Shown in pieces: positions 7,931 to 13,336 of a stretch of DNA of 13,336 nt (its first letter is position 1; each line of letters opens with the position of its first letter). The notes under the pieces are model-generated. The model made no database searches. It was given only the letters and a program-made list of their open reading frames with translations, and had not been told where the DNA came from. The stretch lies in the IMG/VR virus record IMGVR_UViG_2751185957_000009; one strand, written 5' to 3'. Origin of the DNA: a virus. Lineage: Duplodnaviria; Heunggongvirae; Uroviricota; Caudoviricetes. The position numbers and the translations under genes are program-made.

Positions 7931-8123
7931 CCTCTCACTTTTTCGCCTCACTTTTTCAAGCGTCTCACTTCGTCGCAGTTGGGATTTTCGGTTTTTCTAT
8001 GTGTGTGTTTTATAAGTATTTTTTTACCCCTCACTTTTGAGGATGTATACAGGTCGAAAAGTGAGGGAGAGCGGGCTAATTTTGGCCCTCTTTCTATCCC
8101 CCTCGCTTTTGCTCCTCACTTTT
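7931..8123. repeat. Putative replication origin: at least six CCTCACTTTT iterons around an AT-rich spacer, directly 3' of the replicase gene
   Basis: Iterons at 7934, 7948, 7964 (variant), 8029, 8101 (variant) and 8114, plus one inverted copy at 8057-8066. AT-rich stretch 7991-8027. The last iteron overlaps the replicase stop codon. Confidence 0.65.
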
Positions 8124-9522
8124 ATAGCGGCGCTACATCATCCCCATCGATACTAATAACCCCATCTTTTTCCAGCTTGTACAGCCAGCGCCGGAAGTTT
8201 TTCATTTCATACCCCAGCTTTTTCATGTCATCACGTAACAGCGGGATCGTGCACTTGTCGCCGTTCTGTGTGCGTGAACGGATGCACCCCCATAGCGCGG
8301 TATGGTTTTCCGTCTTGTTCCCTGCCTCCTCGATGCGCTCCAGTTCAACAGGAGGGCGCGGATCATCCACCACCACCAGCGACGTGATTAATTCACCGTC
8401 AGCGTCGGTAAAAAGCTCCACCACGCGTAAGTCATATGCGGCTTCTTTGAGTTCCTCCGCGTCCTTCATTTTGGTGCATGAGATAACCAGCGCTTTGCTT
8501 CCTGCGTCCTCCCTGCGTATCCGGTATTCAGCATCCAGCGAAGCACGAAATGCACTGGAACCGCGCGCGCCTTTCGTCTCATCCTTGCCGGAATGGTGAA
8601 CCACCAGCACCGTGGCCCCTGTGCGTCGTTTCAGTTCGTCACAACCACGGATAAACGCCCCCATATCACGGGAATCATTTTCATCATTCCCACCAAAGCA
8701 ACGCGCCAGCGTATCCAGAATAATCATGCGTACAGGTTTACCCGTTTCCCGCTCCACCTGACGGGCAGCGATAACCATTTCATCAACATCAAGCGGGGCA
8801 GCCGGAAAGATGGGGCGGTTTACCAGATACAGATTTTTCACCTGCTCATCGTGCACAACCTCCCAGGCTTTTACACGACGCGGAACGCCGATACCGCCTT
8901 CACCAACCACATAGAGAACCGCACCATGTGCAACCCTGCGGCCTCCCCACTGGCGACCAGTGGCAACATGGCACGCCCACGATCCGGCAAGGAATGATTT
9001 ATAGGACCCGCTAGCCCCGTATATGCTGCATAGCGATACCGCCGGAATAATCCCCTTAACCACGTAATCCAGTTGCGTGTCGTATCCGGTAGATCCAACG
9101 CTCATCGGTAGCGTGGTTTTTCGCTGGTGGTTTTTTTCTTCCACCGGCTCTTTCCCGCGCACCCGTTCCAGGTATTCGCGCCAGTTCTCCCGCATATGGC
9201 TGTGCATCCCTTCGGGGTAATAATTCGCATCAGTTACACCCGCCGCCGCCAGCTTGTGCGCAATGGCATTAATATTTGATGGCCTGATGTGGCCTGCCTT
9301 GTACAGCCGGACACAATAGCGCCCCTCGTCGATGATTCTCAGGTCTGCCAGTTCATCCAGTTGATCATCAGCCAGCACAACGGGAGGCACATTATCGCCA
9401 GCCAGTCGCCCGTCCTGTTCCTGCCACTGTTTTGCATGTGCCCAGGCATCACTACCCGCAAAAATAATGACTTCGGTCATCTTGTCGTAAGGCTGTTTTT
9501 TTAAGTTCGGTGCGCTTTTCAT
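8122..9522 (-). CDS. Replication protein with RecA-like AAA_25 ATPase domain (satellite replicase/helicase, 466 aa)
   Basis: P-loop-like YGASGSYKSF, Walker B-like MIILD, and the signature VLVVHHSGKDETKGARGSSAFRASLDAEY typical of AAA_25 replicative ATPases. Its start overlaps the upstream ORF stop (ATGA). Confidence 0.8.
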   Translation of the reverse strand: MKSAPNLKKQPYDKMTEVIIFAGSDAWAHAKQWQEQDGRLAGDNVPPVVLADDQLDELADLRIIDEGRYCVRLYKAGHIRPSNINAIAHKLAAAGVTDANYYPEGMHSHMRENWREYLERVRGKEPVEEKNHQRKTTLPMSVGSTGYDTQLDYVVKGIIPAVSLCSIYGASGSYKSFLAGSWACHVATGRQWGGRRVAHGAVLYVVGEGGIGVPRRVKAWEVVHDEQVKNLYLVNRPIFPAAPLDVDEMVIAARQVERETGKPVRMIILDTLARCFGGNDENDSRDMGAFIRGCDELKRRTGATVLVVHHSGKDETKGARGSSAFRASLDAEYRIRREDAGSKALVISCTKMKDAEELKEAAYDLRVVELFTDADGELITSLVVVDDPRPPVELERIEEAGNKTENHTALWGCIRSRTQNGDKCTIPLLRDDMKKLGYEMKNFRRWLYKLEKDGVISIDGDDVAPL

Positions 9523-9823: not shown

Positions 9824-10057
9824 TTATTCTCCGGTGTGCTGTTCTTTATATCTGTCGTGCAATAGATCTATTTCTTGCAGTTCCATTATTACAGGCTCAA
9901 GAAGCGTTATTAATGCCGTGGCAATTCTTGATTTTTGTTTGTCGCGTTCATTGTCGCCAAGTGTTTCAAGCCATATGCGCAATATTTCCAGCATGTTTTC
10001 ACTGTGAGAAAGTGCAAGAAATGCGCGGTCTATTGTTTCGTGGTAAATATCACGCAT
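9824..10057 (-). CDS. Hypothetical small protein (77 aa)
   Basis: ORF whose ATG overlaps the upstream stop (ATGCGTGA). Helical, acidic composition. Confidence 0.45.
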   Translation of the reverse strand: MRDIYHETIDRAFLALSHSENMLEILRIWLETLGDNERDKQKSRIATALITLLEPVIMELQEIDLLHDRYKEQHTGE

Positions 10058-10283
10058 GGCTTACATCCTCAGGAAATTTTCTTCTGTAACGCGCCTCTGC
10101 CACATATTCCGCATAATCGGCGGCGATATTCAGTACATCAAGCCCCGTTGATTTATATTCTCTCGTGGAAAGTAAGAAAAAAGCCGCTCTAATAAGTTCT
10201 GGCATTGACGAAAGCGCATCAGCCGCATCATCAGGAACGCCGGGAAATTCCTGTTTCAGGGAATTAAAACGATCATCACGCAT
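10050..10283 (-). CDS. Hypothetical small protein (77 aa from ATG at 10283; the ORF track extends to 10331)
   Basis: ATG at 10283 follows a G8 run acting as Shine-Dalgarno and overlaps the upstream stop (ATGCGTGA). Confidence 0.45.
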   Translation of the reverse strand: MRDDRFNSLKQEFPGVPDDAADALSSMPELIRAAFFLLSTREYKSTGLDVLNIAADYAEYVAEARYRRKFPEDVSHA

Positions 10284-10497
10284 AACCCCCCCCATTTTCA
10301 CAATCAGCAACAAGAATATTTTTAGCGTCATTCAGCGACCGCGTTGCGATGTATCGGATACATTCCAGGGCGAACTGTGTCCGGTCTTTCTGTTCTTCTC
10401 CCTGCGCAAGCTCTGCAGTGCATTCAATATCAATAAGCGCGTGCATCAGCGTAGTGAGTGCGGCGGCTGCTGCGTTCGGTGTGGTTTTATTGTGCAT
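10276..10497 (-). CDS. Hypothetical small protein (73 aa from ATG at 10497; the ORF track extends to 10539)
   Basis: ATG at 10497 with GGGGGA Shine-Dalgarno, overlapping the end of the upstream ORF by 11 nt. Confidence 0.45.
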   Translation of the reverse strand: MHNKTTPNAAAAALTTLMHALIDIECTAELAQGEEQKDRTQFALECIRYIATRSLNDAKNILVADCENGGGYA

Positions 10498-10687
10498 AGG
10501 TTTCCCCCTGACGAATACGGGCGGCGAATACAGCAACACAACCGGACGGGCAACGGCTACGCGCTTCGCGTTCCGTCCAGGCGGTTACGTGGATGATTTG
10601 AGATTCTCCGGCACTCAGGGCCAGAAAACGCCACACAAAGGCCGTTTGTGTGTGTACAAGGTGTGGTATATGATTTACGGCAACCAT
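10487..10687 (-). CDS. Hypothetical small protein (66 aa), first gene of the leftward replication operon
   Basis: ATG at 10687 preceded by AGGAG; the longer ORF (to 10786) would run through the palindromic operators, so the short form is preferred. Confidence 0.4.
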   Translation of the reverse strand: MVAVNHIPHLVHTQTAFVWRFLALSAGESQIIHVTAWTEREARSRCPSGCVAVFAARIRQGETYAQ

Positions 10688-10773
10688 AACGGCTCCTAGT
10701 TTACGTTGTTGGTTAGAAGCCCTGCGAGTGGTAATGACACTTGCGGGGCTTTGCTTTTTTAAGTGCTCTTGTG

Positions 10774-10824
10774 TTAAGGTGGCCACCTAACAATGGAAAG
10801 GCTAATTCAATAGGTGACCACTTG
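10774..10824. promoter_or_regulatory. Divergent control region with two palindromic operator-like sites (GGTGGCCACC and GGTGACCAC)
   Basis: TTAAGGTGGCCACCTAA at 10774-10790 and ATAGGTGACCACTTG at 10811-10824, centres ~35 bp apart, between the divergently oriented operons. An imperfect hairpin plus T-run lies at 10718-10760. Confidence 0.5.
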
Positions 10825-10887
10825 TCAATAATCAAACGCGATAAAAGCCCTAAAGGGGACGGGCAATCCCCACAATTCAGAATGCGA

Positions 10888-11013
10888 ATTTCTCCAGAGC
10901 TAAAAGAGCAATTCGACAAAGAAGCACAGAGCGACGGCATAAGCCTAGCCAACTGGCTTAAAGAGTTGGGGCGCACTGAACTAAAGCGGCGCGGCATAGA
11001 ACCCAAAGGATAA
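10888..11013 (+). CDS. Putative ribbon-helix-helix (Arc/CopG-like) DNA-binding protein (42 aa from ATG; the ORF track starts at TTG 10741)
   Basis: MRISPELKEQFDKEAQSDGISLANWLKELGRTEL fits the beta-strand, helix, G-loop, helix pattern of RHH proteins. Start uncertain; weak ribosome-binding site. Confidence 0.4.
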   Translation: MSPELKEQFDKEAQSDGISLANWLKELGRTELKRRGIEPKG

Positions 11014-11070
11014 AAACTATCAGCGCCGTGGTGTGAGGTATTACGGCGCATTGCTATGCAGGACAACACA

Positions 11071-11244
11071 ATGACCGATAAAGAATTGACCAAAACATTA
11101 TCACCGGCACGGAAAAGACGGCGCAGAAAGATAGAGCATGAATCAGAAAGATTCGCACCATGTGCTTTTGCCCTTGAGCAATTCCTTAAAGAGTATAGGG
11201 AAAAGCGCTCATTGCAGGTATGGCAACGAACTGAACCAGACTGA
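11071..11244 (+). CDS. Hypothetical small basic protein (57 aa; alternative start at 11056)
   Basis: ORF with AGGA 8 nt before the ATG at 11071; contains an RKRRRRK basic patch. Convergent with alpA. Confidence 0.35.
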   Translation: MTDKELTKTLSPARKRRRRKIEHESERFAPCAFALEQFLKEYREKRSLQVWQRTEPD

Positions 11245-11337
11245 TTGCATTGCCCACCAGCCTGATAGCGGCTATCATCCCCGTGCTTATGTTTGGGATC
11301 ATATACACATAAGGCGCAGCGGGTTAATTGTTCAGAA

Positions 11338-11366
11338 AGGCGGCTCCATATCGGGGCCGCTTTTTT
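11338..11366. terminator. Terminator-like hairpin between the convergent plus-strand module and alpA
   Basis: GGCGGC...GCCGC stem followed by TTTTTT on the plus strand, 27 nt after the alpA stop on the other strand. Confidence 0.4.
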
Positions 11367-11392
11367 CGTGTTTGTCATATCTGTGATACCCG

Positions 11393-11599
11393 TTAAGCAG
11401 CCGTTCCGCGTGCTTCCTGTTCGCGTTCTTTCTGCCAGGCCAACACATCATCCTCATACCATCCGCGACGGCGTAAACCAACGCGAAAACCCTGCGGAAA
11501 TTCTCCGGCGTTGATCATGCTTTGCAGCGTGCTGTCTGCCTTGATGTGGATAATTTTTTTTACTTCCTGGCGAAAGATAATTTTTCTGATTGCTTCCAT
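11393..11599 (-). CDS. alpA: AlpA-family transcriptional regulator / excisionase-like protein (68 aa)
   Basis: Motif RQEVKKIIHIKADSTLQSMINAGEFPQGFRVGLRRRGWYEDDVLAWQKER matches the AlpA (Phage_AlpA) pattern as recalled (EV..I.....STLY.....G.FP..IKLG.R.V.W...EV..W). AAGGT Shine-Dalgarno. Confidence 0.8.
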   Translation of the reverse strand: MEAIRKIIFRQEVKKIIHIKADSTLQSMINAGEFPQGFRVGLRRRGWYEDDVLAWQKEREQEARGTAA

Positions 11600-11731
11600 C
11601 GTGATTTACCTTGTGAATCCGGTGTATTCCGGTGACAAATACGGTAAATCATCGGATATGGGTAAAAACAGTTCCCACCGTTTTTAAACGGTATACACCG
11701 TTTTTATATTGATGATTTGAAATGGAATTAT

Positions 11732-11754
11732 AAAAAAAGCGGCATTTCTGCCGC
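11732..11754 (-). terminator. Rho-independent terminator after ORF 11766-12017
   Basis: AAAAAAA-GCGGCA-TTTC-TGCCGC: 6-bp stem, TTTC loop, T7 on the minus strand, 12 nt after the stop. Confidence 0.65.
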
Positions 11755-11765
11755 TTCCAGGATTG

Positions 11766-12017
11766 TTACCGCCATTTTTTGGGCCTGCCTCCGATCTTCA
11801 TAGATGCCGGACGTACGACCTTATCAATACTTACCGCCAGATTTCTGGAAGCGCCACGGGATACCAGAAAATCTACTACCTGTTTTTTTGATGGGGCCGT
11901 CGTTCTGTCCTCCGGATCGTAGGTTGACCAAAATTCATGCTGAACCATCAGGGCCAGTTGCAGCCCGTCGCAATTGCATCTGATATTTTTTTGCATCTTA
12001 ACGGTTTCATGTTTCAC
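11766..12017 (-). CDS. Hypothetical small protein next to the integrase, possibly an excisionase-like DNA-binding protein (start uncertain)
   Basis: ORF between int and alpA with basic C-terminal tail KIGGRPKKWR. The track start is a GTG; in-frame ATGs at 11996 and 11948 lack good ribosome-binding sites. Confidence 0.4.
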   Translation of the reverse strand: MKHETVKMQKNIRCNCDGLQLALMVQHEFWSTYDPEDRTTAPSKKQVVDFLVSRGASRNLAVSIDKVVRPASMKIGGRPKKWR

Positions 12018-12094: not shown

Positions 12095-13336
12095 CTACAC
12101 GGCTCGGATACCCCTTTTACCACTGGCGAGGGTTACGCCCGTCGCCGCAGCCTCGACAAATTCGCCCCACCAGCGCATCAGCACGATGCGTTTTTCTATG
12201 TAGTTGCTCCGGTTGTATGCCCGTCTAACTTCGTTGGTGTCGACGTGGGCAAGTGCCGCCTCTATTACGTCCGGCTCGAATCCTTCCTCGTTCGCTGCTG
12301 TGCTGAATATGGCGCGTAATCCATGAGACACCAGCACGCCAGCGAATCCCATACGCCGCAATGCTGCGTTAGCTGTCTGGCTGTTCATCGGCTGCTGTGG
12401 GTCTTTCAGACTTGGGAAAACGTAATTGCGGTGGTGGCTGATTGGTTTCATGGCCTCCAGCACCGCCATAGCCTGACCGGAAAGCGGGATAACGTGATCC
12501 CTGCGCATCTTCATGCGTCCGGCAGGTATCGTCCATTGCTTCGCGTCCAGGTTGATTTCATCCCACCGCGTTGATGACGCTTCGGCGGGACGGGTTACGG
12601 TCAGTAACTGCCATTCAATCAGTAATCTGGTCTGCCGTTCTGTTGCCGATACTGATAAAGCCTGCATAAGCTCCGGCAGCTGTTCGGGGCGGATTGTTGG
12701 CATATGTTTTTTTACAGGTGAGGGAAACGCCTTACGCACATTCATAGCCGGATTGGCATCAATCAGCCCACTGTTGGCGGCGTAATCCATTACCTCATTA
12801 ACGCGCTGTAAAACCCGCTTGAGTGTTTCCAGGTTGCCGCGCTCCTTGATGGGTGTAAGCACTTCAACGAACCTTCGGGCGGTGAGGGTATCTATTGGCG
12901 TGTTGCCGATGAACGGGAATACATATTTATCCAGCGAACGCCAGATGTCTTTAATCGTGTTGGGGGCCAGATTCTGGCTGATTTTCACCTGGTACCATGC
13001 CGCCGCCACATTTTCGAACGTGTTCCCTTGTCTTCGGGCCTCTGCCTCTCGTTTTTTCTTCTCATGGCCCTGCGGGTCAGTTCCGGCACTGATTAACGCT
13101 CTGTACTCGCTACGGCGTTTTCTGGCATCAGCCAGGGAAACATCATCAAGCGATCCAAAACTCAGCAATATTCTTTTTTTGTCCGATGGCCGGTAGTAGG
13201 AAAATCGCCAGAGTTTTGATCCGGACGGTTTGACCAGGAGAAAAAGCCCTCCGCCGTCCTGTAGGGTGTATTCCTTTTCCGCTGGTCTGGCTGCTTTGAT
13301 CTGCACCGTGGTTAATGGGGGTGTTTTTCTCGCCAT
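12095..13336 (-). CDS. int: P4-type tyrosine integrase (413 aa)
   Basis: N-terminal arm-binding domain typical of P4-like integrases (LTTVQIKAARPAEKEYTLQDGGGLFLLVKPSGSKLWRFSYY), C-terminal catalytic region with HGLR and the tyrosine in RRAYNRSNY. Start codon is the last three bases of the window. Confidence 0.9.
   Translation of the reverse strand: MARKTPPLTTVQIKAARPAEKEYTLQDGGGLFLLVKPSGSKLWRFSYYRPSDKKRILLSFGSLDDVSLADARKRRSEYRALISAGTDPQGHEKKKREAEARRQGNTFENVAAAWYQVKISQNLAPNTIKDIWRSLDKYVFPFIGNTPIDTLTARRFVEVLTPIKERGNLETLKRVLQRVNEVMDYAANSGLIDANPAMNVRKAFPSPVKKHMPTIRPEQLPELMQALSVSATERQTRLLIEWQLLTVTRPAEASSTRWDEINLDAKQWTIPAGRMKMRRDHVIPLSGQAMAVLEAMKPISHHRNYVFPSLKDPQQPMNSQTANAALRRMGFAGVLVSHGLRAIFSTAANEEGFEPDVIEAALAHVDTNEVRRAYNRSNYIEKRIVLMRWWGEFVEAAATGVTLASGKRGIRAV

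Follow-up and report, generated by a model that had tools for sequence, protein, structure and literature searches.

In the immI region of phage P22, the operator of the ribbon-helix-helix (RHH) repressor Arc is located between the -35 and -10 elements of the Pant promoter, the mnt gene faces away from the operon that is repressed, and the sar antisense RNA acts against the ribosome site of ant. An Icd-like first gene that is silenced by a small RNA is found in the immI region of phages P1 and P7 (c4 antisense RNA-icd-ant) and in the immunity system of P4, which uses CI RNA. In the Staphylococcus aureus pathogenicity islands (SaPIs), which are Gram-positive phage-inducible chromosomal islands (PICIs), the gene of the master repressor Stl/Rpr is counter-oriented and separates the int side from the replication operon, the control region being in the gap between the divergent genes (PMC6092414). 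For the Gram-negative PICIs, a global repressor is not known (PMC6092414); in a survey of 2026, 'HicB' and 'YlcI/YnfO' appear merely among the accessory or toxin-antitoxin genes (PMC13612085). Gram-negative PICIs and the capsid-forming PICIs (cf-PICIs) are widespread gene-transfer vehicles; their induction is understood only to the extent that AlpA is needed and that the helper switches alpA on. Here we analyzed one stretch of 13,336 nucleotides, referred to as the window, from a Caudoviricetes virus record (IMG/VR IMGVR_UViG_2751185957_000009). In the window, one RHH gene and one open reading frame (ORF) for a 57-residue basic protein (p57) are located on the plus strand between alpA and a leftward operon that starts with an Icd-like gene (Table 1). 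We consider it likely that the RHH protein, as a repressor of the Arc family, acts through two operators, O1 and O2, on its own gene and on the leftward Icd-like/replication operon, and that this repression is backed by a cis-antisense RNA.

The earlier note on this DNA had described two plus-strand ORFs that converge on alpA (11393–11599, minus strand) and diverge from the replication operon, which is confirmed by the ORF positions. The first ORF had been called a 42-aa RHH-like protein; its RHH nature was borne out, while its length was wrong, 63 residues being encoded from the TTG codon at 10822, not 42 or 43 from the ATG codon at 10882. Homologues across the Enterobacterales are 61–70 residues in length and align from the N-terminal MS[TI]xKRD...PKG.G arm, which is under purifying selection like the remaining protein (pN/pS 0.35). 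Based on the homologue length and this conserved, selected arm, the TTG codon was therefore taken as the start. Its Shine-Dalgarno sequence, AGGT, lies within O2; the ATG codon at 10882 has none. The protein is composed of the N-terminal arm, the RHH domain and one 8-residue tail. The profile search that had been proposed for it, performed with 24 homologues, matched P22 Arc (1b28) with an E-value of 0.002, residues 11–58 being aligned on Arc residues 2–49 with PQF-x-h-R included; PHROG 228 'Arc-like repressor' was matched with an E-value of 1.4e-6. The Pfam scores are under the cut-off (12.7 bits for Arc; 19.5 bits for HicB PF05534, with a cut-off of 21), and searches of a phage collection gave merely three weak matches, none of them annotated.

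The AlphaFold2 (AF2) model of the RHH protein has a mean pLDDT of 81.6. It contains two α-helices (residues 25–37 and 42–56); the β-strand is not formed in this monomer model. In solved RHH structures, two chains together make up the sheet. The top matches found by Foldseek in the PDB are the Arc structures 1myl, 1par, 1bdv and 1baz, followed by other RHH proteins. The probability of the Arc matches is up to 1.0 and their TM-scores are 0.63/0.86; the E-values are weak, owing to the small size of the protein. Taken together, the profile and model comparisons show that the protein belongs to the Arc family (Arc/MetJ superfamily), with P22 Arc as a predicted homologue in both sequence and fold that has the P-Q-F-x-h-R β-strand motif in common with it. 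Most of the 71 distinct proteins, whatever their operator specificity, end in the GIEPKG tail (residues 58–63, 10993–11010), either exactly or with a single difference. This conservation suggests a common partner, which may be a protease, an anti-repressor or dimer-dimer contacts.

Two operator-like palindromic sites had also been claimed in the earlier note, and both are present; GGTGGCCACC occupies 10778–10787 within the O1 palindrome. When counted in the window alone, the sites are weakly above chance: four matches with at most one mismatch were found against 1.05 expected, and 12 of 200 shuffles reach four. No further operator copy was found in the window, including the regions near alpA and int. 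The weight of the operator evidence therefore comes not from the window count, but from 71 distinct control regions, in which the positions are kept and the sites covary. These regions, together with 74 distinct genes, were obtained from 80 loci with RHH relatives in species-representative genomes, sampled from Erwinia, Xenorhabdus, Yersinia, Pantoea, Rahnella, Pectobacterium, Brenneria, Citrobacter, Morganella, Providencia, Serratia and other genera. Nearly all 80 loci have one palindrome about 45 nt before the start codon and a second copy abutting the start codon. The operator core varies among loci, yet it is identical at both sites of one locus. O2 finds an upstream match of at least 9/10 in 81% of the loci, compared to 4.6% when it is paired with a locus of another β-strand class.

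The central 6 bp of O1 and O2 covary with the three outward-facing residues of the β-strand (P-x-F-x-h-R); the residues at the positions of Arc Gln9 and Asn11 change together with this core. At least seven operator specificity classes can be distinguished. The PQF[RK]MR strand is accompanied by the core TG[AG]CCA at 10 of 11 loci, the remaining one having TGGTCA, the reverse complement; PTFQIR is accompanied by TACGTA at 38 of 49 loci. The other pairs are PAFQ[IV]R with TACACA, PPFHMR with TGTACA or TGTGCA, PMFNVR with TCTATA, PIFSVR with TCCATA and, in an O157 island, PPYQMR with GTAATTAC. These data form an unusually clean natural record of protein-DNA covariation, and they give strong comparative evidence that the RHH protein would bind O1 and O2, reading them through its β-sheet. 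They also provide a natural matched repressor/operator set, with at least seven specificities on one 63-residue scaffold, that could be used as orthogonal parts. In the O157 island (locus L002, 2290–2560), the other RHH allele, PPYQMR with GGTAATTACC sites, lies between identical flanks. Exchange of modules apparently occurs at two conserved junctions, GGTTAG before the RNA hairpin (10711–10716) and the codons of the RRGIEPKG tail (10990–11013).

A simple σ70 scan of 10690–10880 gave no promoter, and the promoters were assigned from conservation over the 71 distinct control regions. For the leftward promoter, TTGACA (xTGTCAA on the plus strand) is present in 71/71 regions. The Ser codon of the RHH gene within it is always TCA, while synonymous sites elsewhere are near saturation (pS ∼0.8). 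A TAnnnT hexamer follows at the 18-nt spacer in 46 regions, compared to 0–8 at spacers of 16, 17 or 19 nt. On the plus strand, the extended -10 pattern TGnTAnnnT occurs in 55 of the 71 regions, 46 of them having it at -50/-49 from the RHH start, against a background of 0.042 per 40 nt; of the two symmetric flanks of O1, the left one is the better conserved. We infer that the leftward promoter drives the Icd-like/replication operon from a predicted start at about 10792, and that the rightward promoter drives the RHH gene from a predicted start at about 10787. The RHH operators overlap the conserved predicted promoter elements of the replication/packaging operon. The switch position between divergent promoters that had been put forward earlier is therefore supported by operator overlap with conserved elements on both strands, with the modification that the predicted promoters are face to face.

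The control region extends further to the left than had been recognized. The interval 10688–11244 given in the earlier note holds real ORFs and sites, but its left edge cuts one plus-strand RNA element of the same control region, which the earlier reader had missed. In about 50 distinct loci, a TAnnnT hexamer (TATGCT, TACACT, TAGACT, TAGAAT or TACTAT) is fixed 7–8 nt before AGCCAT, which contains the reverse complement of the ATG codon of the divergent gene. The overlapped genes differ in N-terminal sequence and in reading frame, so this conservation is at the nucleotide level. A terminator-like site, consisting of one GC-rich hairpin and a T tail (10716–10760), was called on the plus strand upstream of O1. 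RNAalifold on a MAFFT alignment missed the hairpin, as its arm lengths vary, and each sequence was folded on both strands instead. The position of the hairpin is conserved, and in 52/52 distinct sequences the plus strand gives the more stable fold, with a mean of -21.4 compared to -15.9 kcal/mol on the minus strand, and G·U pairs make up 98 of 698 pairs on the plus strand and 14 of 599 on the minus strand. Each pair of stem 1 has 6–12 double compensatory changes; in the outer pairs of this stem, G·U occurs on the plus strand only. The predicted product is an antisense RNA of about 80 nt, with full complementarity to the Icd-like gene at its ribosome-binding site and start codon; in it, one short stem-loop presents the anti-Shine-Dalgarno sequence (loop CTCC).

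Relatives of Rfam C4/isrK have been reported in some Gram-negative PICIs (PMC10111431); Rfam searches gave no C4/isrK match at E≤1 in the whole window or at E≤10 in 10560–10900. The only match of any kind, to the Pseudomonas rnk leader, was rejected: it is sub-threshold (26 bits, with a cut-off of 55) and driven by the terminator. The c4 RNA of P1 and P7 and the CI RNA of P4 are processed RNAs of the same strand, whereas the RNA predicted here would be a true cis-antisense RNA from the opposite strand.

These elements suggest how the repressor would work. The predicted starts of the two promoters face each other, and RNA polymerase could therefore occupy only one promoter at a time. When bound at O2, the RHH protein would cover the leftward promoter in the way that Arc blocks Pant from a site between -35 and -10; when bound at O1, it would block its own promoter (autoregulation), sitting at +4 to +15 of the leftward transcript. 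Leaky translation of the Icd-like gene would be silenced by the antisense RNA. For derepression, one candidate is an anti-repressor encoded by the helper or by the satellite, with the GIEPKG tail as a possible target. In many islands of Proteus mirabilis and E. coli (L085–L088 and L091), a minus-strand gene of the anti-repressor-like Bro-N, AntA or Rha type separates alpA from the RHH gene. This gene points toward the RHH gene and would be co-transcribed with alpA; it is a candidate anti-repressor for the RHH protein or for the repressor of the helper. The other candidate is AlpA-dependent read-through from alpA across the module into the operon, which would bypass and silence the RHH gene. 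This idea comes from the direction of alpA, which points through the module into the operon, and from the hairpin after alpA, which is a weaker terminator on its own strand. P. aeruginosa AlpA is described as an antiterminator that loads onto RNA polymerase at the promoter (PMC7969949, PMC9371919).

Several points weigh against repression of the leftward operon by the RHH protein. AlpA is needed for induction of EcCICFT073 and, when over-expressed, is sufficient for it (PMC6092414), and for this reason the RHH repressor may be merely a modulator and not the master control. The predicted -10 elements are weak (TAGCCT, and TAAGGT with an upstream TG), and errors in the details of the promoter assignment are possible. 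The centres of O1 and O2 are separated by 35 bp, which is a non-integral number of helical turns. The sequences compared are phylogenetically related and the counts overstate the number of independent events, although at least seven distinct classes are still found. In the Pectobacterium and Brenneria loci, the hairpins have no T tail; the plus-strand RNA of these loci may form the 5' part of the RHH mRNA, as its leader, and not a small RNA of its own. The AlpA result and the weak leftward -10 element would also suit a different explanation, in which the RHH protein acts locally, autoregulating only the accessory cassette made up of its own gene and p57, while control of the leftward operon is left to AlpA alone and the leftward promoter elements are coincidental. 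We regard this explanation as unlikely, given that the TCA codon and TTGACA are kept in all regions despite saturated synonymous change, that TAnnnT is found at the 18-nt spacing only, and that the RHH gene is retained beside the Icd-like operon across genera even where there is no second gene. The preferred reading remains a repressor of both promoters; the position of a master repressor switch, which the earlier note had proposed, is supported by the operator/β-strand covariation and by the promoter overlap.

Compared to P22, the locus shares three features of layout. Like the Arc operator at Pant, O2 lies between the -35 and -10 elements of the predicted leftward promoter; like mnt, the RHH gene faces away from the operon that it would repress; and like sar at ant, the predicted antisense RNA is directed against the ribosome site of the downstream gene as a second layer. 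Different from P22, the locus belongs to a phage satellite instead of a phage and contains one RHH gene instead of two. P22 has one 21-bp operator, whereas two sites of 10–12 bp, 35 bp apart, are present here. The -35 element of the target promoter is encoded by the start codon of the repressor itself, and there are many interchangeable specificity classes. The target operon starts with the Icd-like gene and has replication and capsid genes; no ant gene is present in the window. The kind of device is ordinary, namely an immI-like RHH switch as in phages, and the locus is a well-supported new instance of it in an important, uncharacterised place. The comparison links the control regions of satellites to the immI regions of phages P22 and P1.

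The RHH gene matches Stl/Rpr of the SaPIs in position: it is a regulator gene transcribed against the replication operon on the int side of the latter, and the control region fills the gap from which the two diverge. This gene order is found in the window and also in islands of Proteus and E. coli; in these islands, no gene other than the RHH gene is counter-oriented between alpA and the Icd-like/primase operon. Stl has an unrelated fold and is not an RHH protein, so any membership of the RHH protein in this group would be functional only. Stl is derepressed by a helper-phage protein, while Gram-negative PICIs additionally need AlpA. In the literature that we searched, there is no repressor of EcCIEDL933 or EcCICFT073, no RHH or HicB repressor in PICIs, and nothing relevant on ECs1576/ECs1577. 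The layout described here, found in satellites across enterobacteria, is a good candidate for their undescribed 'off switch'.

Opposite to the two plus-strand genes, the Prokaryotic Genome Annotation Pipeline (PGAP) calls one ORF of 221 residues on the minus strand. The usual codon-position test could not be used, because the RHH gene, p57 and this antisense ORF share their wobble positions; the strand was decided by dN/dS in both frames and by counting stop codons, which is decisive for the RHH gene and suggestive only for p57. The RHH frame is intact in 74/74 distinct genes, whereas the antisense frame is intact in 33 and broken in 41. Over the RHH gene, dN/dS is 0.14 in the plus frame and 0.24 in the antisense frame, and the plus-frame product can be recognised by its fold. 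It is extremely improbable that the 221-aa ORF is the real gene and the plus-strand ORFs are its shadows. It is open over 666 nt, it is annotated in RefSeq, and the antisense frame is open in 5/5 diverged p57 homologues; yet its wobble positions are shared with both plus-strand genes, its equivalent frame over the RHH gene has stops at 41 of the 74 distinct loci, all 74 of which keep the RHH frame intact, and dN/dS favours the plus frames. Searches of families including Pfam, PHROG, NCBIfam and PADLOC gave no match for it. It starts inside the terminator hairpin, which thus supplies its N-terminal codons, and it has an unusual amino-acid content (14% Ser, 5.9% Cys and 1.8% Glu). Islands with Arc-type modules and islands with YlcI-type modules would encode wholly different C-terminal halves of it. 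The 221-aa ORF is most likely a shadow ORF and not a gene. The antisense mis-annotation is systematic across hundreds of E. coli genomes, with products of 221–247 residues (ECs_1576 of Sakai is at locus L097, 11024–11767); in other genomes, the same antisense stretch is labelled as a truncated 'Icd-like protein'. The present assignment corrects both this 'hypothetical protein' and the 'HicB antitoxin' label.

The 57-aa basic ORF that had been reported earlier was confirmed at 11071–11244. The profile search proposed for it yielded PHROG 21027 (E=1.6e-15) and no family in Pfam, NCBIfam or PADLOC; no relative of solved structure was found. The AF2 model of p57 is one single long helix (pLDDT >90) with a disordered basic N-terminus (KRRRRK). 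An exhaustive profile search of 1.8 billion proteins found nine representatives, and the named matches are nearly all from E. coli or Shigella; no p57 homologue was found in the 80 loci of other species. In many E. coli and Proteus islands p57 is also absent, and the RHH gene stands alone or is followed by the minus-strand Bro-N, AntA or Rha gene. The evidence on the coding strand of p57 is moderate only. The plus strand is favoured by the PHROG match, by the confident helix of the model, by a higher pS in the plus frame in 10/10 pairs and by the PGAP annotation of CFT073, in which the plus-strand gene is called; all five diverged homologues, however, also have an open antisense frame. In E. 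coli, p57, the hairpin before it and the terminator after it form one cassette that recombines independently of the RHH part. This cassette is also found behind YlcI/YnfO-type genes, and in EcCICFT073 the hairpin is kept together with p57 behind a different RHH gene. The 'RHH gene pair' described in the earlier note is accordingly not obligatory: other genera have a monocistronic RHH gene, and p57 is also found after an RHH gene of the unrelated YlcI/YnfO type. p57 appears to be a co-transcribed, lineage-restricted, optional add-on.

These results bear on the alternative of a toxin-antitoxin system, which had also been raised earlier. In a type II cassette of this kind, the RHH protein would be the autoregulating antitoxin and p57 the toxin; the cassette would serve island stabilisation or abortive-infection defence and would not control the replication operon. 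The homologues are named 'HicB family antitoxin' in NCBI and UniRef, the PF05534 score is close to its cut-off, and a small RHH gene followed by a gene for a small basic protein, with operators over its own promoter, is the usual layout of such systems. The present protein resembles the HicB-family and other RHH antitoxins in its DNA-binding domain of the RHH type, in its predicted autoregulation by way of palindromic operators and in the name given to it in databases. This name comes from the near-threshold PF05534 match, which covers the RHH DNA-binding domain only. Different from these antitoxins, the RHH protein has no toxin-neutralising domain and no HicA or other toxin partner: it lacks the HicB N-terminal domain and has 8 residues past the fold, and p57 and the neighbouring ORFs have no match to HicA or other toxins in Pfam, NCBIfam and PADLOC. 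The partner is not conserved, given the absence of p57 from the other-species loci and the RHH-only islands, its presence behind the unrelated YlcI/YnfO-type gene, and the monocistronic RHH gene in most genera. In addition, O2 and the RHH start codon are built into the promoter of the opposite operon. We therefore consider a toxin-antitoxin cassette very unlikely, and repression of the leftward operon is again preferred.

The window is 99.7% identical to one E. coli chromosomal island, which is located at a tRNA-Pro gene adjoining yejM. On the minus strand, the order is integrase (12095–13336), an 83-aa ORF, alpA and the Icd-like gene, followed by several small ORFs, a DUF4222 gene and a RepA-type helicase gene (8122–9522), and then by the genes for single-stranded DNA-binding protein, PerC, major capsid protein, decoration protein and TerS. 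In the 99.7% identical genome, the annotated capsid protein, decoration protein and TerS are close to their EcCICFT073 counterparts, one being identical, and for this reason the island is assigned as a PICI-like satellite of the EcCICFT073 type. The Icd-like gene encodes a putative cell-division inhibitor. In E. coli O157:H7 EDL933 and Sakai, the Arc-type module is present, with 98.2% identity, inside the prophage-like element Sp7, which is 15.46 kb in size (1,594,711–1,610,171) and contains integrase, primase, capsid, protease, portal and terminase genes; the counterpart of the control region is at about 1,597,170–1,597,500 of NC_002695.2. We infer from its size (15.4 kb is given for EcCIEDL933), gene content and strain that Sp7 is the prototype cf-PICI EcCIEDL933; different from the island of the window, it also has portal, protease and TerL.

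The prototype PICI EcCICFT073 carries one counter-oriented YlcI/YnfO gene between alpA and the Icd-like gene. Its module contains direct repeats of its own (two copies of GGTGTGGCCCAC), the antisense-RNA hairpin seen in the window and a p57 with 100% identity to that of the window. The claim that the module was inserted and departs from the described layout of Gram-negative PICIs did not hold, since both prototypes have a counter-oriented module that is un-annotated or mis-annotated. The module appears, from these comparisons, to be the normal layout of enterobacterial PICI and cf-PICI islands and not an island-specific insertion.

YlcI/YnfO (DUF3950) genes, known from lambdoid cryptic prophages and PICIs, occupy the same slot and have the same antisense-RNA element and the same p57 cassette; they belong to another sequence family, with other operator repeats and another spacing of the promoter elements. 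An RHH-like pattern in these proteins was recognized by eye only. The YlcI/YnfO gene replaces the Arc-type gene in EcCICFT073 (L099, NC_004431.1 1380242–1381052), L003 and L093–L096. These modules have locus-specific repeats (GGTGTGGCCCAC, GGATTCCAGT, GAAACACAC and CTTACA...), TTGAC(A/G) on the opposite strand and a TGnTATACT extended -10 element. This looks like a second, analogous repressor/operator family in the same slot. In E. coli O178:H19 (L093, 1193–2444), the modules are in tandem, a YlcI-type gene with a p57-like gene being followed by an Arc-type gene with a p57-like gene; one 'ash' (P4 epsilon-like) pseudogene adjoins the Icd-like gene between them.

A wider proposal is tentative, and we hold it at less than even confidence: the Arc-like RHH protein, or its YlcI/YnfO replacement, may be the missing maintenance repressor of Gram-negative PICIs, cf-PICIs and related satellites, and the counterpart of Stl. 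It would keep the Icd-like/anti-repressor/replication/capsid operon off by means of face-to-face promoters that lie partly in its own start codon, with exchangeable 'immunity' classes, and it would be overridden in helper infection by an anti-repressor or by AlpA-modified RNA polymerase. The modified polymerase would pass the weak terminator, run against the RHH gene, which would be silenced by collision, and enter the operon. An Arc-type repressor with readable operator specificity on the replication-operon promoter in the models EcCIEDL933 and EcCICFT073 makes this question of control testable.

Table 1. Position of the control region, its genes and the flanking elements in the window
Feature	Position	Strand	Basis or remark
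Icd-like gene, first of the leftward (replication/packaging) operon	10487–10687	-	NCBIfam NF033153 phage_ICD_like, E=6e-18; PGAP annotation in the 99.7% identical genome
Candidate antisense-RNA promoter, -10-like TATGAT	10669–10674	+	inside the first codons of the Icd-like gene
Candidate cis-antisense RNA, ∼80 nt	10681–10760	+	anti-start CAT 10685–10687; anti-Shine-Dalgarno CTCCT 10693–10697; GGTTAG; hairpin 10716–10752; T tail 10753–10760
221-aa ORF, WP_001329530.1 (ECs_1576 in Sakai)	10713–11378	-	PGAP 'hypothetical protein'; most likely a shadow ORF
Predicted rightward extended -10, TGtTAAGGT, for the RHH gene	10772–10780	+	last four bases are the left half of O1
Operator O1, perfect 12-bp palindrome AGGTGGCCACCT	10777–10788	.	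∼45 nt before the RHH start; position conserved
Predicted leftward -10, TAGCCT	10799–10804	-	18-nt spacer from TTGACA
Operator O2, AGGTGACCAC	10812–10821	.	abuts the RHH start codon; holds the Shine-Dalgarno AGGT; in the spacer of the leftward promoter
Arc-family RHH repressor gene (predicted), 63 aa, TTG start	10822–11013	+	homologues, Arc profile, AF2 model, intact frame
Leftward promoter -35 (predicted), TTGACA	10823–10828	-	encoded by the last two bases (TG) of the RHH start codon, by Ser codon TCA and by one A after it
Hairpin separating the RHH gene from p57, without T tail	11023–11049	+	-17.7 kcal/mol; start of the mobile 'module B'
p57, 57-aa basic protein	11071–11244	+	Shine-Dalgarno AGGA 7 nt before ATG; PHROG 21027
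Intrinsic terminator ending the RHH-p57 transcript	11334–11366	+	-21.7 kcal/mol on + and -14.0 on -; just after alpA

Three further features were noticed on the minus strand outside the module. The overlapping ORFs at 10276–10539 and 10050–10331 match the N- and C-terminal halves of phrog_2512, respectively; PGAP marks this gene (10050–10539) as frameshifted in the near-identical genome, and it is probably a pseudogene or a case of programmed frameshift. The 83-aa ORF between int and alpA (11766–12017) has no family and is followed by one strong minus-strand terminator (11735–11758). As this terminator ends the ORF upstream, alpA seems to have its own promoter region at 11600–11735. Upstream of alpA, at 11630–11710, AAAACGGTG occurs twice around the GGTGTATACC palindrome, with ACACCGGA-like repeats nearer the start codon. 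The RHH operator is absent there, and these repeats are candidate binding sites for AlpA or a helper factor.

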